The notes below the pieces were generated by a model that ran no database searches, was not told the origin of the DNA, and saw only the letters and a list, made by a program, of their open reading frames with translations. Shown piece by piece: positions 17,415 to 24,000 of a DNA stretch of 24,000 bases. The stretch is taken from contig OX638325.1 in the NCBI GenBank assembly GCA_951812795.1, positions 1,488,277 to 1,512,276 on the forward strand, read 5' to 3'. Position numbers and translations under genes: made by a program. The stretch is from an uncultured Dehalococcoidia bacterium (lineage in GTDB: Bacteria > Chloroflexota > Dehalococcoidia > Lucifugimonadales > Lucifugimonadaceae). Within the stretch, counting starts at the first letter, position 1; each line of letters starts with the position of its first letter.

Positions 17415-18650
17415 TCACCCCAAAACCGTCATCATCACCACCCGGTTCGTGTTTGTGCCGCGTCGGTTGTTGGTGACGCCCCAAGTGTTTGAGGTCTTCG
17501 TAAAGTCTTGCTGGTTTACGAGGACCCCGATTACTTCGACGGGAAGTTGGGCATCTCGAATTGCTGCGTAAACTAGGTCTTCAAGTTTGATGGTTGAGTT
17601 GCGGACCTCGCCGACTTCGTAGCAGATCGTACCGCCGGGTTTGACGACTCGGCAAAGCTCTCGCAAAGTTTCGGCGGTGAAACGTTGCCAATTTTCGGGG
17701 TTTTGCAGGATTGCGATTGGTTGCGCGTCAATGTCTATGTCGGCGAACCACGCCCGAACGTGGTTGTCGGACCGGTAGTCGACGGTGTCAAGGAACGGAG
17801 GCGATGTCACAATCAAATCGACCGAAGCTGTTTTGATCTCTGGCGTGGATGTCGAGTCGCCGCAGATCAGATCAAATTGGGTGTAGTTTAGTCCCCCATG
17901 ACGGAGCAAAGATCGACTCTTCCGCAATATCAATTCTTTGACGTCACGTTCAGAGGGAGTCTGTCCGCGCTTTTCGTTGATGCGCGACTGGCTTTCGATT
18001 GATGCCGCTTGATTTGGGGGTAGCGTGTAAACGGAAAAGAAACCGGGGGAGTGTCCGGTCAATCGACTCATCGCCACCAACCGGATCCAGTCATCGACAG
18101 AATCAAACGTGCCTGTTGTATCGCGTTCGCTTAACCAAGATCGGAGTGCGACGATTTGTCGGAGCGTCGCGGGGTGAAAGAAGACAGCGAATCGCTCATC
18201 GGATTCCGTTGGCTCTACGGCACCCCATGGCACTTCTCGCAACCGGGTTTCGATTTCGCGCAGTTCGGGGGTGTTGAGCCGCGGCCGCGTCATCATGATC
18301 GAAATAGGATTCGCGTCGTTACCGACTGCATGTCGATTCATGAGGGCCGCCTGAATCGGTGTCGTGCCTCGTCCCATGAATGGGTCGTATACGACGCCCT
18401 CGGGATCGGTCAGTCGGGCGATGAAAAACTCGGGGAGTTGTGGTTTGAAGCATGCTCGGTAGCTGATTTCGTGCAAAGCGTGACCGGCCCGCTGTGCATG
18501 CGTCCAGAACTCGTTGACGTAATAGACGAGTGGAAGCGCGTCGGAAGATGAAGTAACTTCGACGACTTCGGTTTTATTTCCAAAGTCGTCGAAGTTGGTC
18601 AACCCGTCGACGAAGTTGTCGACGCGGCTGCGATGTTCCAGACTGATCAC
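17415..18650 (-). CDS. Site-specific DNA methyltransferase (N4-cytosine/N6-adenine class, SPPF catalytic motif), orphan
   Basis: The AdoMet motif I is VYDPFMGRGTT (aa 88-97; DPFMGRG itself is aa 89-95). It is preceded by the HEISYRACFKPQLPEFFI block. The catalytic motif IV is LIVTSPPFLD (SPPF is aa 283-286). No adjacent endonuclease-like ORF is visible. Confidence 0.75.
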   Translation of the reverse strand: MISLEHRSRVDNFVDGLTNFDDFGNKTEVVEVTSSSDALPLVYYVNEFWTHAQRAGHALHEISYRACFKPQLPEFFIARLTDPEGVVYDPFMGRGTTPIQAALMNRHAVGNDANPISIMMTRPRLNTPELREIETRLREVPWGAVEPTESDERFAVFFHPATLRQIVALRSWLSERDTTGTFDSVDDWIRLVAMSRLTGHSPGFFSVYTLPPNQAASIESQSRINEKRGQTPSERDVKELILRKSRSLLRHGGLNYTQFDLICGDSTSTPEIKTASVDLIVTSPPFLDTVDYRSDNHVRAWFADIDIDAQPIAILQNPENWQRFTAETLRELCRVVKPGGTICYEVGEVRNSTIKLEDLVYAAIRDAQLPVEVIGVLVNQQDFTKTSNTWGVTNNRRGTNTNRVVMMTVLG

Positions 18651-18792: not shown

Positions 18793-21198
18793 TTAGACGG
18801 ACGACGAAGGTTCGTCGGGTTCTTCAATTTCGGTTTCTGGCACCGCCATCACACTCGCCATGCGGCGCCGCCGACGGATCCAGAAACGGATCGCGAAGTA
18901 GATGCCCGCACCGAGGATCAGCCAGATCGGCGAGGTCGTCGCGATCCAGATCGCCGCCGTGCCTGCAAAGGTGAAGAACGCGACCAGAACGTTGAGTCCT
19001 TGTGTGGCGGTGTCTCCGGGTTCGAATTCGGACGAGTTCACTGTTGGCGATGCCGTGACGTATATGTCGATGAAATGCGTTTCGCGCACTTCGCCGGCAT
19101 CGCTGTCGCCCCATATCTCGAACTTGACGAGGTACGAATCGGGCCTAAACCGGTCGAATGCATGATCGATCTCGACGCGAGTCACGTCGGTACCGATCGG
19201 CTCTTCGGTGATCTTCGAACCGTCACGGAAGTCCCACCGGTGCATCAAGTTCCGTACCGTCTCCGGATGGTTGAAGGTCGCGGTGAATCTGACCGTTTGG
19301 TTCTCTTCTATGGTGTGTTGAGAGGCCGACAGGTATGCTTCGATCTGTGGCAGTTCCGAGACATGTGCCCACAGCTGGTCACCGCCTTCGGAAACACCTC
19401 TGTCAGACGATGCTTTGACTTTTACCGTCACTACGTATGGCGAGAACGCGTCATTGGTGTAGGTATGGACGACCGGCGCGCTCAAGTAGCTCGACGCGTC
19501 CTGAGTCTTTAACGCCGAATGGACCGTCTGAGACCCGGTTCCGTCGCCGAAATCCCAAGTGATCTCGAAACGATCGTATCCTTCGGGCGGAATGAAGCGC
19601 GCGGTGTACTGCCGTTGCACGTTCGTACCGACGCCGATGTCTTCTCCAGCGTCTACTTCAACCGCTATGGGAGCGACGTTGACCCAGAACTTGTCTCTCC
19701 CGTGTGCCACGCCTTGGTCAGAAGACGCATTGACGTTGACCGACACGACGTACGGTGAGAACCTGTCGGTATCGTAAGCGTGAACTACAGGGACGCTAAG
19801 GTAACCTTGGTTGTCTCGAGTACGCAGCGCTGATCGCACGATCTTCTGTCCGGAAGCGTTGCCGAAGTCCCAGGTGATCCTGAAGTTATCGTAACCCTCC
19901 GGCGGATTGAACCGCGCAGTGTACTGGTTCTGTTCGTGGACACCGACATCGATATCGCCACCCGCATCGACGTTGAACGAGACCGGCGCGACGTGCGCCC
20001 AGATTTTGTCTTCACCTTGTGCCACGCCGTTTTCCGAGTACGCCTTGATGTTGACCGTTACGACATAGGGGGAGAAGCCGTCGCTGCTGTAGCTGTGAAC
20101 TACCGGCACGCTCAACAACCCTTCTTCGTTTTGGGTCCTGAGGGCAGACTTGGCGGAACTAGGTGGTGATCCGTCGCCGAAATCCCAGACGATCTCGTAC
20201 GTGTCGTACCCTTCTGGCGGATTGAAACGCGCAGTGTATTGTCGCTGGGTCGATAGCCCCACGCGGATGTCTGGGCCAGCATCAACCTGCATCGGGATTG
20301 GCGAGAGGTTTACGGTTACCTCCAATTTGGAGAAGTTCGCGGATTGACTGATGAACCGCAATCGTCCGTCAATGCTTTCGAGTTCGGTCTGCCAACTGGT
20401 TATCTCCTTTTGCACTTCCAACAGTTCTTCGACGCTGTCGTACTCGGCGGTTTTCAGTAGCTCCGTCAAAGCGTTAACGGTTTCTTGAACCGTCGTTTGT
20501 CGGGCAGTGAGATCGATGAACTCTTCGGTGAAGTCCGCGCTCGTTGAATTGACTTTTTCAACCTTCGCCACGGAATTTGAGATCTCGTCGATGACGGCAT
20601 CTAAGATTTCAGCGGGCACTCGGATCGTGATGCTGTACGAACCTCGATCATTGGCGGTGCTGTCGACGATCCAACCTCCGCGGTCATTGGCAAGATCGCC
20701 GATTGCGTCGATGGTTGCGCTCGGGTCATCGGATTGCACCGTCATTTCTGCATTTCGGACGATCACTCGTGCCTGTGGTTGGAACGAGATTTCGTCGCTT
20801 TGCGCAGTACCTTCTGAGCCGGATTGGGATTCAACCGATTCGTTTGGGGCTGGCGCCGCGGAACTAGCCGGTTGGACCACACTCTCGCCAGCGACCTCAA
20901 CCTCCTTCAAGACCTCAACAACGCTCTCGACTTCGACCTCCCTCATGACTTCAATTTCGCGCTCGACCACGACGGTCTGGACTACGATTTCGCTTGAAAC
21001 CATCACCTCTTTTTCAACTACTACGGTCTGAATTATTGTTTCACCTTTAACTTCGCGCTCAACCATAAAAGCATCGTTACTCGGTTCCCCATCGCTAGAG
21101 CCGCCGCAATTGACAACCATCAATGCTGCGAACATAAAGCTGAATAGGCTGAGGAAGATTTTCGGTCGCTGAGCGACCATGTCTATTGCGTATGTCAT
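18793..21198 (-). CDS. Envelope protein: N-terminal anchor, V/E-rich linker, DUF4349-like domain, 4 PKD domains, C-terminal membrane anchor
   Basis: AGGAG sits 8 nt upstream of ATG 21198. The hydrophobic N-terminus ends in VVNCGG. VVQTVVVEKEV-type repeats span aa 45-110. The region aa 140-300 (RVIVRNAEMTVQSDD..., ITIRVPAEILDAVIDEIS, SADFTEEFIDLTAR, IDGRLRFISQSANFSKLEVTV) resembles DUF4349 as I remember the family. Three 105-aa repeats carry WDFGDG/WDFGNA, followed by a fourth divergent one with WDFRDG (PKD signature). A hydrophobic segment of about 40 residues is followed by RRRRR and an acidic tail. Confidence 0.8.
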   Translation of the reverse strand: MTYAIDMVAQRPKIFLSLFSFMFAALMVVNCGGSSDGEPSNDAFMVEREVKGETIIQTVVVEKEVMVSSEIVVQTVVVEREIEVMREVEVESVVEVLKEVEVAGESVVQPASSAAPAPNESVESQSGSEGTAQSDEISFQPQARVIVRNAEMTVQSDDPSATIDAIGDLANDRGGWIVDSTANDRGSYSITIRVPAEILDAVIDEISNSVAKVEKVNSTSADFTEEFIDLTARQTTVQETVNALTELLKTAEYDSVEELLEVQKEITSWQTELESIDGRLRFISQSANFSKLEVTVNLSPIPMQVDAGPDIRVGLSTQRQYTARFNPPEGYDTYEIVWDFGDGSPPSSAKSALRTQNEEGLLSVPVVHSYSSDGFSPYVVTVNIKAYSENGVAQGEDKIWAHVAPVSFNVDAGGDIDVGVHEQNQYTARFNPPEGYDNFRITWDFGNASGQKIVRSALRTRDNQGYLSVPVVHAYDTDRFSPYVVSVNVNASSDQGVAHGRDKFWVNVAPIAVEVDAGEDIGVGTNVQRQYTARFIPPEGYDRFEITWDFGDGTGSQTVHSALKTQDASSYLSAPVVHTYTNDAFSPYVVTVKVKASSDRGVSEGGDQLWAHVSELPQIEAYLSASQHTIEENQTVRFTATFNHPETVRNLMHRWDFRDGSKITEEPIGTDVTRVEIDHAFDRFRPDSYLVKFEIWGDSDAGEVRETHFIDIYVTASPTVNSSEFEPGDTATQGLNVLVAFFTFAGTAAIWIATTSPIWLILGAGIYFAIRFWIRRRRRMASVMAVPETEIEEPDEPSSSV
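19342..20286 (-). repeat. Three tandem 315-nt coding repeats (PKD domains 1-3)
   Basis: The repeat units start at the VDAG(P/G/E)D codons at 20286, 19971 and 19656, giving an exact 315-nt period. Conserved blocks are QYTARFNPPEGYD, WDFG, SVPVVH and FSPYVV(T/S)V. Confidence 0.85.
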
Positions 21199-21239
21199 GA
21201 TGAGTTCTCCTTCGTGTGGATTGGGTTCATATAGGAGTT

Positions 21240-21265
21240 GACGCTGGGGGATGCTATTTTGTTCC
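21240..21265 (-). promoter_or_regulatory. Putative ECF-sigma-type promoter P1 (GGAAC-N17-CGTC)
   Basis: The minus strand reads CAGCGGGAACAAAATAGCATCCCCCAGCGTCAAC. The -35 GGAAC is at 21265-21261 and the -10 CGTC at 21243-21240, with an exact 17-nt spacer. There are 41 nt from the -10 to ATG 21198. The GCGGGAACAAA block is identical to that at 23470-23480. Confidence 0.55.
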
Positions 21266-21308
21266 CGCTGAAACGCAGTTTTTCTGAACCTGTTGCGTGT
21301 CCAATAAC

Positions 21309-21344
21309 GAAGACGCCCTCGCGCTATGGAACGAGGGCGTCTTC
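21309..21344 (-). terminator. Stem-loop downstream of the vWA gene (probable terminator, weak U-tract)
   Basis: GAAGACGCCCTCG (21309-21321) pairs perfectly with CGAGGGCGTCTTC (21332-21344) around a 10-nt loop. On the minus strand it is followed by GTTATTGG. It lies between stop 21415 and promoter P1. Confidence 0.45.
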
Positions 21345-21414
21345 TTCGCTTCTCACCGTCAGACTCGCGACGATGAGCGATATCGAAGGCAATGAGCCTT
21401 CAGAGGTCTGCTGA

Positions 21415-23412
21415 TTACCTGCTGTAACCGGTGCGTGGAACTGGTTGGACGCTTCCGACCAGCGAGTCGAGCACGAACTCGAAGTCGTTATAGGCGTCGG
21501 TGCCCGAGATCGGGGAGCCTAGCGATCGAAGCCGCGCTTGGAGGTAGGAGAGATCGTTGTGGATCGATCCGGGGTGGTCGCTGCCGTATTCGTGCCGGCC
21601 GCTGTAGCGATCAGCTGCAAGCGCGACGATGGCACCGAAGTCGGTTGTCGAATCGCGGTTTGACAGGGCGGCCTCGATCTCGCGGTGTTGGCGATTTCCT
21701 TCACCCGTGTTGGGGGTGACCCAACGGACCTCGACATTGCCGAGTGTTTCGTTTCCGTTTCGAAGCACGTACGGGTCGACCAGCTCTAGCTCGAAGAAGA
21801 CCGTAGTTGCGGCACCAGCAGGAAGCTCGGCGAACTTCTTCTCCGCACGAGTGAACGACTCGTCAGAGGTGACGCGGTTTTCGTATCCGATCATTCGCCA
21901 GCTACGAACATGCTCCTCGTCCCAGACAACTTGGGCGCGTGTCTGGTCGGCAAATGGCACGGACAGAGCGTGCCAGTTATCGCGGTCGAAGAGCATGCGT
22001 CCCTCGTCAGGCGAACTGAGGTACCGGTACCAACCGTTCCCATGTTGGGCGAGTTGTTCGAGGAGGACATCGTTGTAGTTGTTGATGCCGACACCGATGG
22101 TGATCAGTCGGATCGGGTTGGCTGGGTTGTCGTCGCGGGCCGATTCGAGGATCGCGAACGGGTTGGTCGCGTCGACGTTGGCCACGCCGTCAGACATGAG
22201 GATCACGTAGTTATACGCGTTAGGTCGCTGCCTGCGCATCTCGTCTGCCAGTTGCACACCCTGGTTCAACCCGGCTTGAACATTGGTTCCTCCACCGGGG
22301 TAGAGGTCTCGAATGGAGTTGCGGAGCGCCGTGCTTCCGGGGTCGTCGTCTTCTACGGTCAAGCCGCGCTTCACGTTGTTGTCGAAGTGAACGATCGACA
22401 TTCGATCATCTCGACCTAGGCTCGTCCGGATGGTCTCGGCGGCTGCGCGCGCAATCTCGACCCGATTTCCGTCGGACATCGAGCCGGAGCCGTCGAGGAC
22501 GAGTGTCACGTTCAACGGGAGGTCGACTACGATATCTGGCGCTTGGAACGCGACGCGAGCTAAGTGGAGGCCGTTGTCCAGCGGATGGGCCATGATGTCG
22601 GTCTGTATGTTGAAGGAATCGTCGTGACGAGGCATCTCGTAGCCGTAATTGAACGCGTTGATCCACTCTTCCGCACGGACGGATGCTGGGTCTACCTCGT
22701 ATCCAGCGCGCGTCCAGTTGAGGGCGAGTTGGAACGAAGTGCGATCGGTGTCGAGGCTGAAGGTCGATGTGTCGTCCTGAGACGTTAGAGCGAAGTTGCT
22801 GCGGGTTGTGTTCTGGAACGTAATCGCGCCGGGTTGGAAGGATTGGCTTGGCGAACTCGGCGGCGATGTCTTGACGACGGGTGTCGGTGCGCTATGCGAT
22901 GCCGCGGTTGCTCCTGGCGCGGCGGTCATGGCTTCGGCTTCTACGATTTTCTCGACCTCAACCTCCAAGACTACTTCCTTGACGATTTCCTTTTCGACAA
23001 TCACAGTTGCTACCGGCGGTTGAGGTGCCGTAGCAGCCGCGGCTTCTCCCGCAGGGCGCGCGGTGGGAACGGGCATGCCCGGTGCTCCGGGTGGTCCGGG
23101 TGCCCCCGGCGCTCCGGGCGCTCCGGGCGATCCCTTTTCGACCAATGTTTCCCCGGCAACCTCGACCCTTTTTTCCACGATGACCGTCTGAACCACCGTT
23201 TCACCCGGCACAGACACTTCCTTTTCGACGATTACGGTTTGGAGCACCGGTTGTCCGGGCACTGATTTTTCGACCACTACCGTTTGCACCACGGTTTCGT
23301 TTCCGCCACACGCGATCGTCGCGGCGACGACCGTGGCGGCGATCACGAGTGCGATGGCCGTCATCGGTTTAGTTACGAGAGTCTTGAGTTGCTCTGTTTT
23401 GTTGATCATCAT
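21415..23412 (-). CDS. Secreted/anchored von Willebrand factor type A protein (YfbK-like: N-terminal vWA-associated domain, vWA, C-terminal DUF3520-like region)
   Basis: GGAG sits 7 nt upstream of ATG 23412. The hydrophobic N-terminus ends in TIACGG. V/E-rich repeats and a Gly-X-Y run follow. The block FSLDTDRTSFQLALNWTRAGYEVDPASVRAEEWINAFNYGY is typical of the YfbK-type N-terminal domain. The MIDAS motif is LVLDGSGSM, with later GGTN and LMSDG. Confidence 0.8.
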   Translation of the reverse strand: MMINKTEQLKTLVTKPMTAIALVIAATVVAATIACGGNETVVQTVVVEKSVPGQPVLQTVIVEKEVSVPGETVVQTVIVEKRVEVAGETLVEKGSPGAPGAPGAPGPPGAPGMPVPTARPAGEAAAATAPQPPVATVIVEKEIVKEVVLEVEVEKIVEAEAMTAAPGATAASHSAPTPVVKTSPPSSPSQSFQPGAITFQNTTRSNFALTSQDDTSTFSLDTDRTSFQLALNWTRAGYEVDPASVRAEEWINAFNYGYEMPRHDDSFNIQTDIMAHPLDNGLHLARVAFQAPDIVVDLPLNVTLVLDGSGSMSDGNRVEIARAAAETIRTSLGRDDRMSIVHFDNNVKRGLTVEDDDPGSTALRNSIRDLYPGGGTNVQAGLNQGVQLADEMRRQRPNAYNYVILMSDGVANVDATNPFAILESARDDNPANPIRLITIGVGINNYNDVLLEQLAQHGNGWYRYLSSPDEGRMLFDRDNWHALSVPFADQTRAQVVWDEEHVRSWRMIGYENRVTSDESFTRAEKKFAELPAGAATTVFFELELVDPYVLRNGNETLGNVEVRWVTPNTGEGNRQHREIEAALSNRDSTTDFGAIVALAADRYSGRHEYGSDHPGSIHNDLSYLQARLRSLGSPISGTDAYNDFEFVLDSLVGSVQPVPRTGYSR

Positions 23413-23452
23413 TGCTGTTCTCCGTGACGTTGTTTTGGGTCACTGAAGAACA

Positions 23453-23478
23453 GACGACGGTGGGTGAGTATTTGTTCC
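23453..23478 (-). promoter_or_regulatory. Putative ECF-sigma-type promoter P2 (GGAAC-N17-CGTC)
   Basis: The minus strand reads CTGCGGGAACAAATACTCACCCACCGTCGTCTGT. The -35 GGAAC is at 23478-23474 and the -10 CGTC at 23456-23453, with a 17-nt spacer. There are 40 nt from the -10 to ATG 23412. Confidence 0.55.
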
Positions 23479-23497
23479 CGCAGAACTCGAAATCGTC

Positions 23498-23536
23498 AAA
23501 AATAAAAAGGCTCGGGACCGATTGCGGTCCCGAGCC
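23498..23536 (-). terminator. Rho-independent terminator of the edge-truncated upstream gene
   Basis: GGCTCGGGACCG (23509-23520) pairs perfectly with CGGTCCCGAGCC (23525-23536) around a 4-nt loop. On the minus strand TTTTTATTTTT (23508-23498) follows. The stem begins 24 nt after the stop at 23560-23562. Confidence 0.8.
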
Positions 23537-23559
23537 CTGTTAGTTTTTGTGCAGGAAAC

Positions 23560-24000
23560 CTATGCTGGTGTCCTAGCATCATCGGTATCACCGGCATCCG
23601 GCTCATCGTCCGTTGATGAAGGCACAAACACCGCACGCGCAACGTTACGTTGCCGACGAATGATAAAGCGGACGATGAAGAAGATGATTACGCCCAGAAT
23701 GATCCAGATCGGCGACGTGATGGCGAGCCAGATGCCGGCGGTTCCAGCAAAGGTGAAGACACTGATGAGGACGTTTACGGCGTTTGTTGCGGTATTGCCG
23801 GGGGCGAAATCGGATGATTCGATCTCTGGCCCCGGATAGACGTAAACGTGGGCATAGTGCGTCTCTTCAACCTCGCCGGCATCGCTGTCGCCACGGATCT
23901 CGAAGACGATCTGGTATGACTCTGGACGGTGCCGATTGAAGATGTGCTCGATTTCGATGCCGGTTTCGCCGGCGTCAACCGTTCCTTCGACGACGGGAGA
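23560..24000 (-). CDS. C-terminal 146 aa of a second PKD-like/C-terminal-anchor envelope protein (paralog of 18793-21198), 5' end beyond the window
   Basis: This ORF is absent from the track because it has no start codon in the window. My own translation of the minus frame reads ...IEIEHIFNRHRPESYQIVFEIRGDSDAGEVEETHYAHVYV...NVLISVFTFAGTAGIWLAITSPIWIILGVIIFFIVRFIIRRQRNVARAVFVPSSTDDEPDAGDTDDARTPA, ending at TAG (23562-23560). It is colinear with the last ~130 aa of the 801-aa protein. Confidence 0.75.
   Translation of the reverse strand, partial: SPVVEGTVDAGETGIEIEHIFNRHRPESYQIVFEIRGDSDAGEVEETHYAHVYVYPGPEIESSDFAPGNTATNAVNVLISVFTFAGTAGIWLAITSPIWIILGVIIFFIVRFIIRRQRNVARAVFVPSSTDDEPDAGDTDDARTPA

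Follow-up and report, generated by a model that had tools for sequence, protein, structure and literature searches.

Two neighbouring genes for exported proteins in the genome of an uncultured Dehalococcoidia bacterium are each preceded by the same short motif, which raises the question of whether these motifs are promoters and, if so, which sigma factor reads them. The genes lie in a stretch of 24,000 nucleotides (the window, C1:1488277-1512276) of a single-contig genome of 2.609 Mb with 56% G+C. A sequence-only reading of the window had taken the motifs for promoters of the extracytoplasmic function (ECF) type, and its description of them was reproduced when we read the minus strand. The first site, P1, is the predicted ECF-type promoter of gene B and occupies positions 21236-21269 of the minus strand, where it reads CAGCGGGAACAAAATAGCATCCCCCAGCGTCAAC; GGAAC, the -35 box, lies at 21265-21261, and CGTC, the -10 box, at 21243-21240. 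The second, P2, the predicted ECF-type promoter of gene A, spans 23449-23482 of the same strand and reads CTGCGGGAACAAATACTCACCCACCGTCGTCTGT, its GGAAC lying at 23478-23474 and its CGTC at 23456-23453. Both contain the 11-mer GCGGGAACAAA, both separate the two boxes by 17 nucleotides (nt), and the distance from CGTC to the ATG is 41 nt for gene B and 40 nt for gene A. As argued below from sequence comparisons, P1 and P2 are very probably genuine promoters, read by an ECF sigma factor that is encoded about 920 kb away. We consider it highly likely that the whole can be explained by ECF-type promoters recognised by this factor, ECF2, and serving a regulon of at least seven units for exported or membrane proteins.

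The genome, of 2,609,140 base pairs (bp), contains the 11-mer GCGGGAACAAA just twice, at P1 and P2, and a search of the whole genome with the pattern GGGAACAA-N14-16-CGTC likewise returned these two sites only. Within the window, matches with one mismatch number 3, compared with 0.59 expected. When both strands of the whole genome were scanned for the two boxes alone, GGAAC-N17-CGTC was present in 43 copies, against 34-58 copies at any other spacing. The picture differs between genes: intergenic GGAAC-Nn-CGTC was found 8 times at n = 17 compared with a mean of about 2.2 at the other spacings (n = 8-27), and intergenic GGAACA-Nn-CGTC 6 times compared with about 0.4 over the same range. Enrichment of the motif between genes is thus limited to a spacing of 17 nt.

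The scan also uncovered further members beyond P1 and P2, as the sequence-only reading had proposed that it might. Site P3 (C1:1513612-1513587, outside the window) was concealed within the longest reading frame of gene C, the neighbour of gene A. It reads atGGAACttatctcggccaaccaaCGTCtaga and places GGAAC-N17-CGTC 35 nt before an internal ATG (MSTLRI...), which begins a typical lipoprotein signal, MSTLRITILIALATTLAFAFGCGG; the start codon of gene C, a gene that runs off the window, is corrected by this analysis, and the three adjacent genes A, B and C are each preceded by the motif. Site S4 lies 13 nt past the stop codon of the ECF2 sigma gene, ahead of a downstream membrane protein that is a candidate anti-sigma factor, and S3 lies 63 nt before a SIMPL/DUF541 gene that follows this candidate. 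S5 is situated 58 nt before the gene of a triple-META lipoprotein, and S6 before that of a small lipoprotein. The distance from the seven sites (P1-P3 and S3-S6) to the start codons is 35-76 nt, and each site has the same orientation as its gene. Each of the seven genes behind them encodes either a protein with a signal, lipobox or transmembrane N-terminus or the anti-sigma candidate itself. A weight-matrix scan gave the seven sites 27.8-33.2 bits and the next best site 19.0 bits, a gap that is only indicative since the matrix was trained on the same seven sites. Genes were called crudely as longest open reading frames (ORFs), so that starts are over-extended and intergenic sites under-counted, which affects P3 and S6. 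The notion of a small ECF regulon of surface proteins is thus supported as regards the exported and membrane proteins, while its restriction to two genes gives way to at least seven transcription units. One more intergenic site, GATGGAACAAAATCCACGTCGAGAACGTTTATC (C1:1230698-1230730, minus strand; 18.6 bits), has CGTT as its -10 box in a GGAAC-N17-CGTT arrangement and lies 63 nt before the gene of a 1215-residue membrane-anchored protein (C1:1226991-1230638), a possible eighth member of the regulon. Site S7 (C1:1961437-62), which precedes a RelE-like gene by 283 nt, is a probable false positive.

To see how the motif fares in relatives, we compared metagenome-assembled genomes of the same genus, for which the nearest named records are SAR202 cluster or Dehalococcoidia. 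GGAAC-N17-CGTC precedes the orthologues of gene A, which encodes a protein with vWA domains, in 29 of 30 genus loci (55-95% identity) with variable spacers, and in the sole exception a contig end cuts the locus. P3 is kept before orthologues of gene C (DUF4349/PKD) in 24 of 25 loci, and the P1 motif is kept 40-41 nt before the ATG in each of the five genomes with a true orthologue of gene B. For the META lipoprotein the motif was found in 13 of 14 genomes with an orthologue, down to an identity of 49%, and both S4 and S3 are present in 20/20 genus loci of the ECF2 sigma gene. Among 30 genus genomes there is no orthologue of the small lipoprotein encoded behind S6. When pooled, 115 distinct sites gave the consensus A(T/G)GGAAC(A/T)(A/T)(A/T)T ... 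CGTC(T); as the search pattern itself prescribed its core boxes, the non-circular measure of conservation is the fraction of orthologous loci with a site. The spacer columns of the pooled sites carry at most 0.3 bit, except for two positions adjoining CGTC with 0.4-0.5 bit, and A is favoured 9 nt past CGTC. This A is likely to be the transcription start, and starts are predicted at about 21231-21233 for P1 and at about 23444, a base A, for P2. Taken together, the ECF-type reading of P1 and P2 is supported by geometry, orientation, distance to the start codon, the intergenic peak at N17, the conservation of the boxes, with spacers that vary, in 20-30 related genomes and the presence of the motif at the ECF2 locus.

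Which sigma factor could read these sites? The window holds no gene of the sigma-70 family, in agreement with the sequence-only reading; four such genes are found elsewhere in the genome, at 266 kb, 372 kb, 589 kb and 2,075 kb. The suggestion that the regulator might lie just beyond position 24000 does not hold, as the next 8 kb contain gene C and unrelated ORFs with no match to a sigma factor; the likely sigma gene is about 920 kb away. Two of the four family members are long and two are ECF-sized (192 and 196 residues), so that ECF sigma factors are indeed encoded in this genome. The first of these, ECF1 (C1:265966-266541), is SigK-like, below the cut-off. The second, ECF2 (196 residues; C1:588645-589232), matches Sigma70_r2 (1e-16), Sigma70_r4_2 (1.2e-12) and TIGR02937 (94.8 bits; cut-off 42.9), and has the layout of an ECF (group 4 sigma-70) factor, with regions sigma-2 and sigma-4 only and a size within about 170-220 residues. 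It stays below every curated equivalog cut-off tested, the best being PRK12513 with 117.7 bits against 206.

The motif is exclusively associated with one of the two ECF loci, that of ECF2. We surveyed 79 loci of ECF2 homologues (33-96% identity) from a species-representative collection, covering Dehalococcoidia, Anaerolineae, Chloroflexia and Clostridia. In 41 of the 79, GGAAC-N16-18-CGT[CAT] is present at the junction of sigma and anti-sigma genes, that is in the terminal part of the sigma gene or immediately past it and before the next gene, against a background of 0.015 per 170 nt; these 41 include loci of Anaerolineae, Chloroflexia, Ardenticatenaceae and Clostridia. A motif upstream of the sigma gene was seen in only 5 of 78 loci. 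For ECF1, no consistently placed GGAAC-N16-18-CGT site was found in 25 loci. Judged by this distribution, the motif is probably that of ECF2.

A number of observations weigh against this explanation. Most ECF sigma factors autoregulate (PMC7826278), and unlike these the ECF2 gene has no upstream motif; in the present genome none was found upstream of the sigma gene at either ECF locus. The candidate anti-sigma factor matches the Pfam family RskA_N with an E-value of 0.039 only, which is below the cut-off. The genomes compared are kin, and the conservation counts overstate their independence. P1 and P2 in turn resemble each other beyond the boxes, through the 5' untranslated region (TGA(A)CCCAA, ACGnAGGAGAAC), and the identity of the 11-mer beyond GGAACAAA may stem in part from a duplicated 5' region and not from independent convergence, so that the two sites may not be two fully independent observations. 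Finally, two genomes of the genus, G010 and G019, keep P2, and ECF2 was not found in them. As the adjacent SIMPL and lepB genes, the latter essential, are also missing there, and the genomes are 88-93% complete, the absence of ECF2 most likely reflects an assembly gap rather than gene loss.

These two genomes do contain ECF1, the only other ECF sigma factor of the genome under study, and this lends some substance to the alternative that the motifs are ECF promoters read by ECF1, or by both factors. ECF1 is also the more conserved of the two (89-100% identity, compared with 57-96% for ECF2), and different ECF groups often share GGAAC/CGT-like boxes. We nevertheless regard recognition by ECF1 as unlikely: its 25 loci lack a conserved GGAAC-N16-18-CGT, whereas the ECF2 loci of the genus have two sites each, and the junction motif accompanies ECF2 homologues across phyla.

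A second alternative is that the paired boxes are the binding site of a transcription factor and that the real promoters are located elsewhere. Conservation alone does not separate a promoter from an operator. However, the boxes form neither a palindrome nor a direct repeat, they match canonical ECF -35 and -10 elements, and they keep a fixed spacing of 17 nt, a single orientation to the gene and a distance of 35-76 nt from the start codon. Moreover, no sigma-70-like promoter match was detected in the short intergenic regions that hold P1 and P2, and the motif recurs at sigma/anti-sigma junctions in distant phyla, all of which makes an operator very improbable. That the likeness of P1 and P2 is a functionless leftover of a tandem duplication of the 5' end of a gene, or chance, is barely credible: the likeness does span the 5' untranslated region and the signal peptide, and gene B has the look of a recent chimera and occurs in only a few genomes, yet the same boxes precede non-paralogous genes (SIMPL, META lipoprotein, anti-sigma), they do not vary among orthologues that share as little as 49-58% protein identity and have diverged spacers, and the distribution of spacings peaks only at 17.

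Returning to ECF2 as the factor that reads the motif, the protein encoded directly downstream of it has one transmembrane helix, an extracytoplasmic stalk and what may be a degenerate class I anti-sigma N-terminus, and its position and topology fit a class I anti-sigma factor. Its positional homologues in distant ECF2-type loci contain zf-HC2 anti-sigma domains (1e-10 to 2e-5). The stalk of this candidate consists of the repeat ETV(V/I)QTVVVEKEV, and about 20 exported proteins, mostly of 620-820 residues and with the lipobox ..ACGG, start with the same repeat stalk (for example C1:2249187-2251322, 1089943-1091910 and 600564-602723). The stalk appears to be a tether module used generally in this lineage. 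A role of the VVQTVVVEKEV/collagen-like stalk, shared by the anti-sigma candidate and genes A and B, as a sensing link specific to the regulon is ruled out by its presence in these proteins.

At S4, an ATG located exactly 8 nt past the CGTC opens an ORF of about 23 codons (C1:588523-588594, minus strand); its stop codon overlaps the anti-sigma start codon, a GTG, TTG or ATG (NTGA). At 18 of 20 genus loci, and also in two genomes that are more distant, this upstream ORF (uORF) retains its position and length, and the sequence of the peptide is not conserved. This arrangement suggests that the uORF is leaderless and translationally coupled to the anti-sigma gene.

Other conserved features surround the two sigma genes. 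In the 53-nt gap between ECF2 and the divergent lepB gene (signal peptidase I), a palindrome GCAAT-T(C/G)T-ATTGC is found at C1:589266-589278. In the form GCAAT-N3-ATTGC it is kept in most genus loci, and substitutions in its arms break it in L014 and L018-L023. The palindrome may act as an operator, or as a promoter element common to both genes, that controls expression of the sigma factor. Upstream of the ECF1 start, in the roughly 70 nt towards the preceding gene (C1:266542-266620; 25 loci), compensatory changes maintain a stem-loop, as in GTGACGTGTATTCGTCAC, GCGGTGCTGTAAGTGCCGC and GGCTGTTCAATAGCC, and a conserved GGAGAAnGGAAGCCATATC stretch comes after it. The stem-loop may represent a terminator or a regulatory hairpin.

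The following circuit can be proposed. The ECF2 holoenzyme would recognise the -35 box (T/G)GGAAC(A/T)(A/T)(A/T)T and, 17 nt further on, the -10 box CGTC(T), and would initiate 7-9 nt past the CGTC. The single-pass membrane protein encoded directly downstream would keep ECF2 inactive until a cue, presumably related to the envelope, frees it. Freed ECF2 would then activate transcription of seven or more separate units, all for exported or membrane proteins, namely genes A, B and C, the SIMPL/DUF541 gene, the triple-META lipoprotein, the small strain-specific lipoprotein and its own anti-sigma gene. Because the sigma gene itself has no motif, the sigma-dependent promoter within the operon would raise the anti-sigma and SIMPL proteins and not the sigma factor, resulting in negative feedback instead of positive autoregulation. 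Of the autoregulated sigma/anti-sigma operon that had been anticipated, the motif at the junction between the two genes was thus recovered, and none was present before the sigma gene.

A comparison with known ECF systems shows both shared and deviating features. As in Escherichia coli sigma-E (RpoE) with RseA, an ECF sigma factor is followed directly by a single-pass membrane protein, here the candidate anti-sigma factor, the -35 box begins with GGAAC and the regulon comprises envelope proteins; the sigma-E structure (PDB code 1or7) matches ECF2 at 2.3e-18. The two systems differ in that a sigma-E-dependent promoter is also present upstream of rpoE, where none was seen before ECF2, and in the -10 box, which is TCAAA for sigma-E and CGTC here. 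The hosts, a proteobacterium and a member of the Chloroflexota, are distant, the regulon contents are unrelated, and a score of 98.5 bits with the RpoE NCBIfam model (cut-off 236) shows that ECF2 is not an orthologue. The description of rseA P3 in PMC8595263, as a sigma-E-dependent promoter that directly feeds the anti-sigma gene, offers a precedent for the negative-feedback arrangement proposed for ECF2.

The closest solved ECF sigma factors are SigE and SigH of Mycobacterium tuberculosis, with PDB sequence matches to ECF2 of 1.1e-23 and 1.7e-18, respectively. Both read GGAAC-type -35 boxes with spacers of about 16-18 nt. ECF2 reaches 110.7 bits with the SigE equivalog PRK09647 (cut-off 265), and in contrast to the mycobacterial systems its anti-sigma candidate has no HxxxCxxC zinc motif. 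The regulon is also a different one, and ECF2 appears not to be autoregulated. Bacillus subtilis SigW/RsiW has a membrane anti-sigma factor downstream of the sigma factor, the position of the candidate here, and likewise a regulon of membrane and exported proteins, and the SigW-type -10 box is CGT(A/C). ECF2 is matched by SigW models at 3e-26 and by PDB entry 5wuq at 7.8e-18, while the score with the SigW equivalog is 92.4 bits against a cut-off of 209. The SigW -35 box is TGAAAC and not GGAAC, and autoregulation of sigW-rsiW acts through a promoter ahead of sigW.

Promoters of the GGAAC/CGTC type, membrane anti-sigma factors and regulons of envelope proteins make up the ECF pattern known from textbooks. 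As the principle is that of the textbook, the value of the present analysis lies in annotation and in a hypothesis, and not in a conceptual advance. What it provides is a concrete candidate regulon for an uncultured SAR202/Dehalococcoidia lineage, with one sigma factor, one anti-sigma factor, a promoter consensus and seven to eight targets. These targets are exported proteins of unknown role (vWA/YfbK-like, DUF4349-PKD, SIMPL and META), and proteins of the DUF4349 and YfbK types would thereby be tied to an envelope-signalling circuit. In our literature search we found no paper that combines DUF4349 and ECF, and the main text of the ECF re-classification paper mentions neither Chloroflexi nor GGAAC nor DUF4349. 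Specialists might find only one part unusual, the junction promoter together with its putatively coupled uORF. In a joint reading that we put forward tentatively, as possible rather than probable, ECF2 would belong to a widespread ECF module of Chloroflexota and some Clostridia without positive autoregulation, in which the operon's sole sigma-dependent promoter is located where the sigma and anti-sigma genes meet. Within the SAR202 genus this promoter would give rise to a leaderless transcript with a uORF of about 23 codons, anti-sigma synthesis from it would depend on termination-reinitiation coupling, and in sponge-associated SAR202 the circuit would govern a conserved set of surface proteins (vWA, DUF4349/PKD, SIMPL and META).

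The genes behind P1 and P2 are arranged in tandem on the minus strand. Gene A (21415-23412) encodes a lipoprotein-type exported protein of 665 residues with the lipobox ..IACGG, an ETVVQTVVVEKxV stalk and a collagen-like PGAPG run, followed by vWF_A, VWA and YfbK_C domains (Pfam matches: VWA 1.2e-18, vWF_A 4.1e-16, YfbK_C 9.7e-9). Orthologues of this vWA protein are present in 30 of 31 genus genomes, and in several relatives the cluster contains 2-4 vWA paralogues in tandem. Gene B (18793-21198; 801 residues) combines a signal with lipobox and a VVEKEV stalk with DUF4349 (2e-33), PKD domains (PKD_4, 1.7e-17) and a C-terminal membrane anchor; full-length orthologues exist in only 5 of 31 genus genomes. 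Gene C, of which the 3' part lies inside the window (23560-24000), is a paralogue of gene B, DUF4349/PKD-like and also equipped with a C-terminal anchor. The promoter, 5' untranslated region and signal/stalk region of gene B resemble those of gene A, with 33% identity across the initial ~100 residues, and the body of gene B is 58% identical to gene C, with about 200 extra residues. Gene B thus looks like a recent chimeric duplicate.

Two strong hairpins separate these genes, both on the minus strand. The first, a G+C-rich hairpin of 14 bp at 21309-21344 (-27.8 kcal/mol, z = -4.75), is located 3' of gene A and close upstream of P1. Its T tail is weak (GTTATT), and it is likely to be a terminator, which would make gene B a separate transcription unit. 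The second, also of 14 bp and followed by TTTTTATTTTT, lies at 23507-23538, 3' of gene C and close upstream of P2 (-28.7 kcal/mol, z = -6.41); with its T run it looks like an intrinsic terminator in a terminator scan. P1 and P2 are thus situated a few tens of bases downstream of strong gene-ending hairpins, so that each gene would need a promoter of its own. Directly downstream of gene B, a DNA methyltransferase-like ORF (17415-18650, minus strand; N6_N4_Mtase, 2.1e-18) is found, and a 17-bp inverted repeat is located near its start, at 18555-18596.

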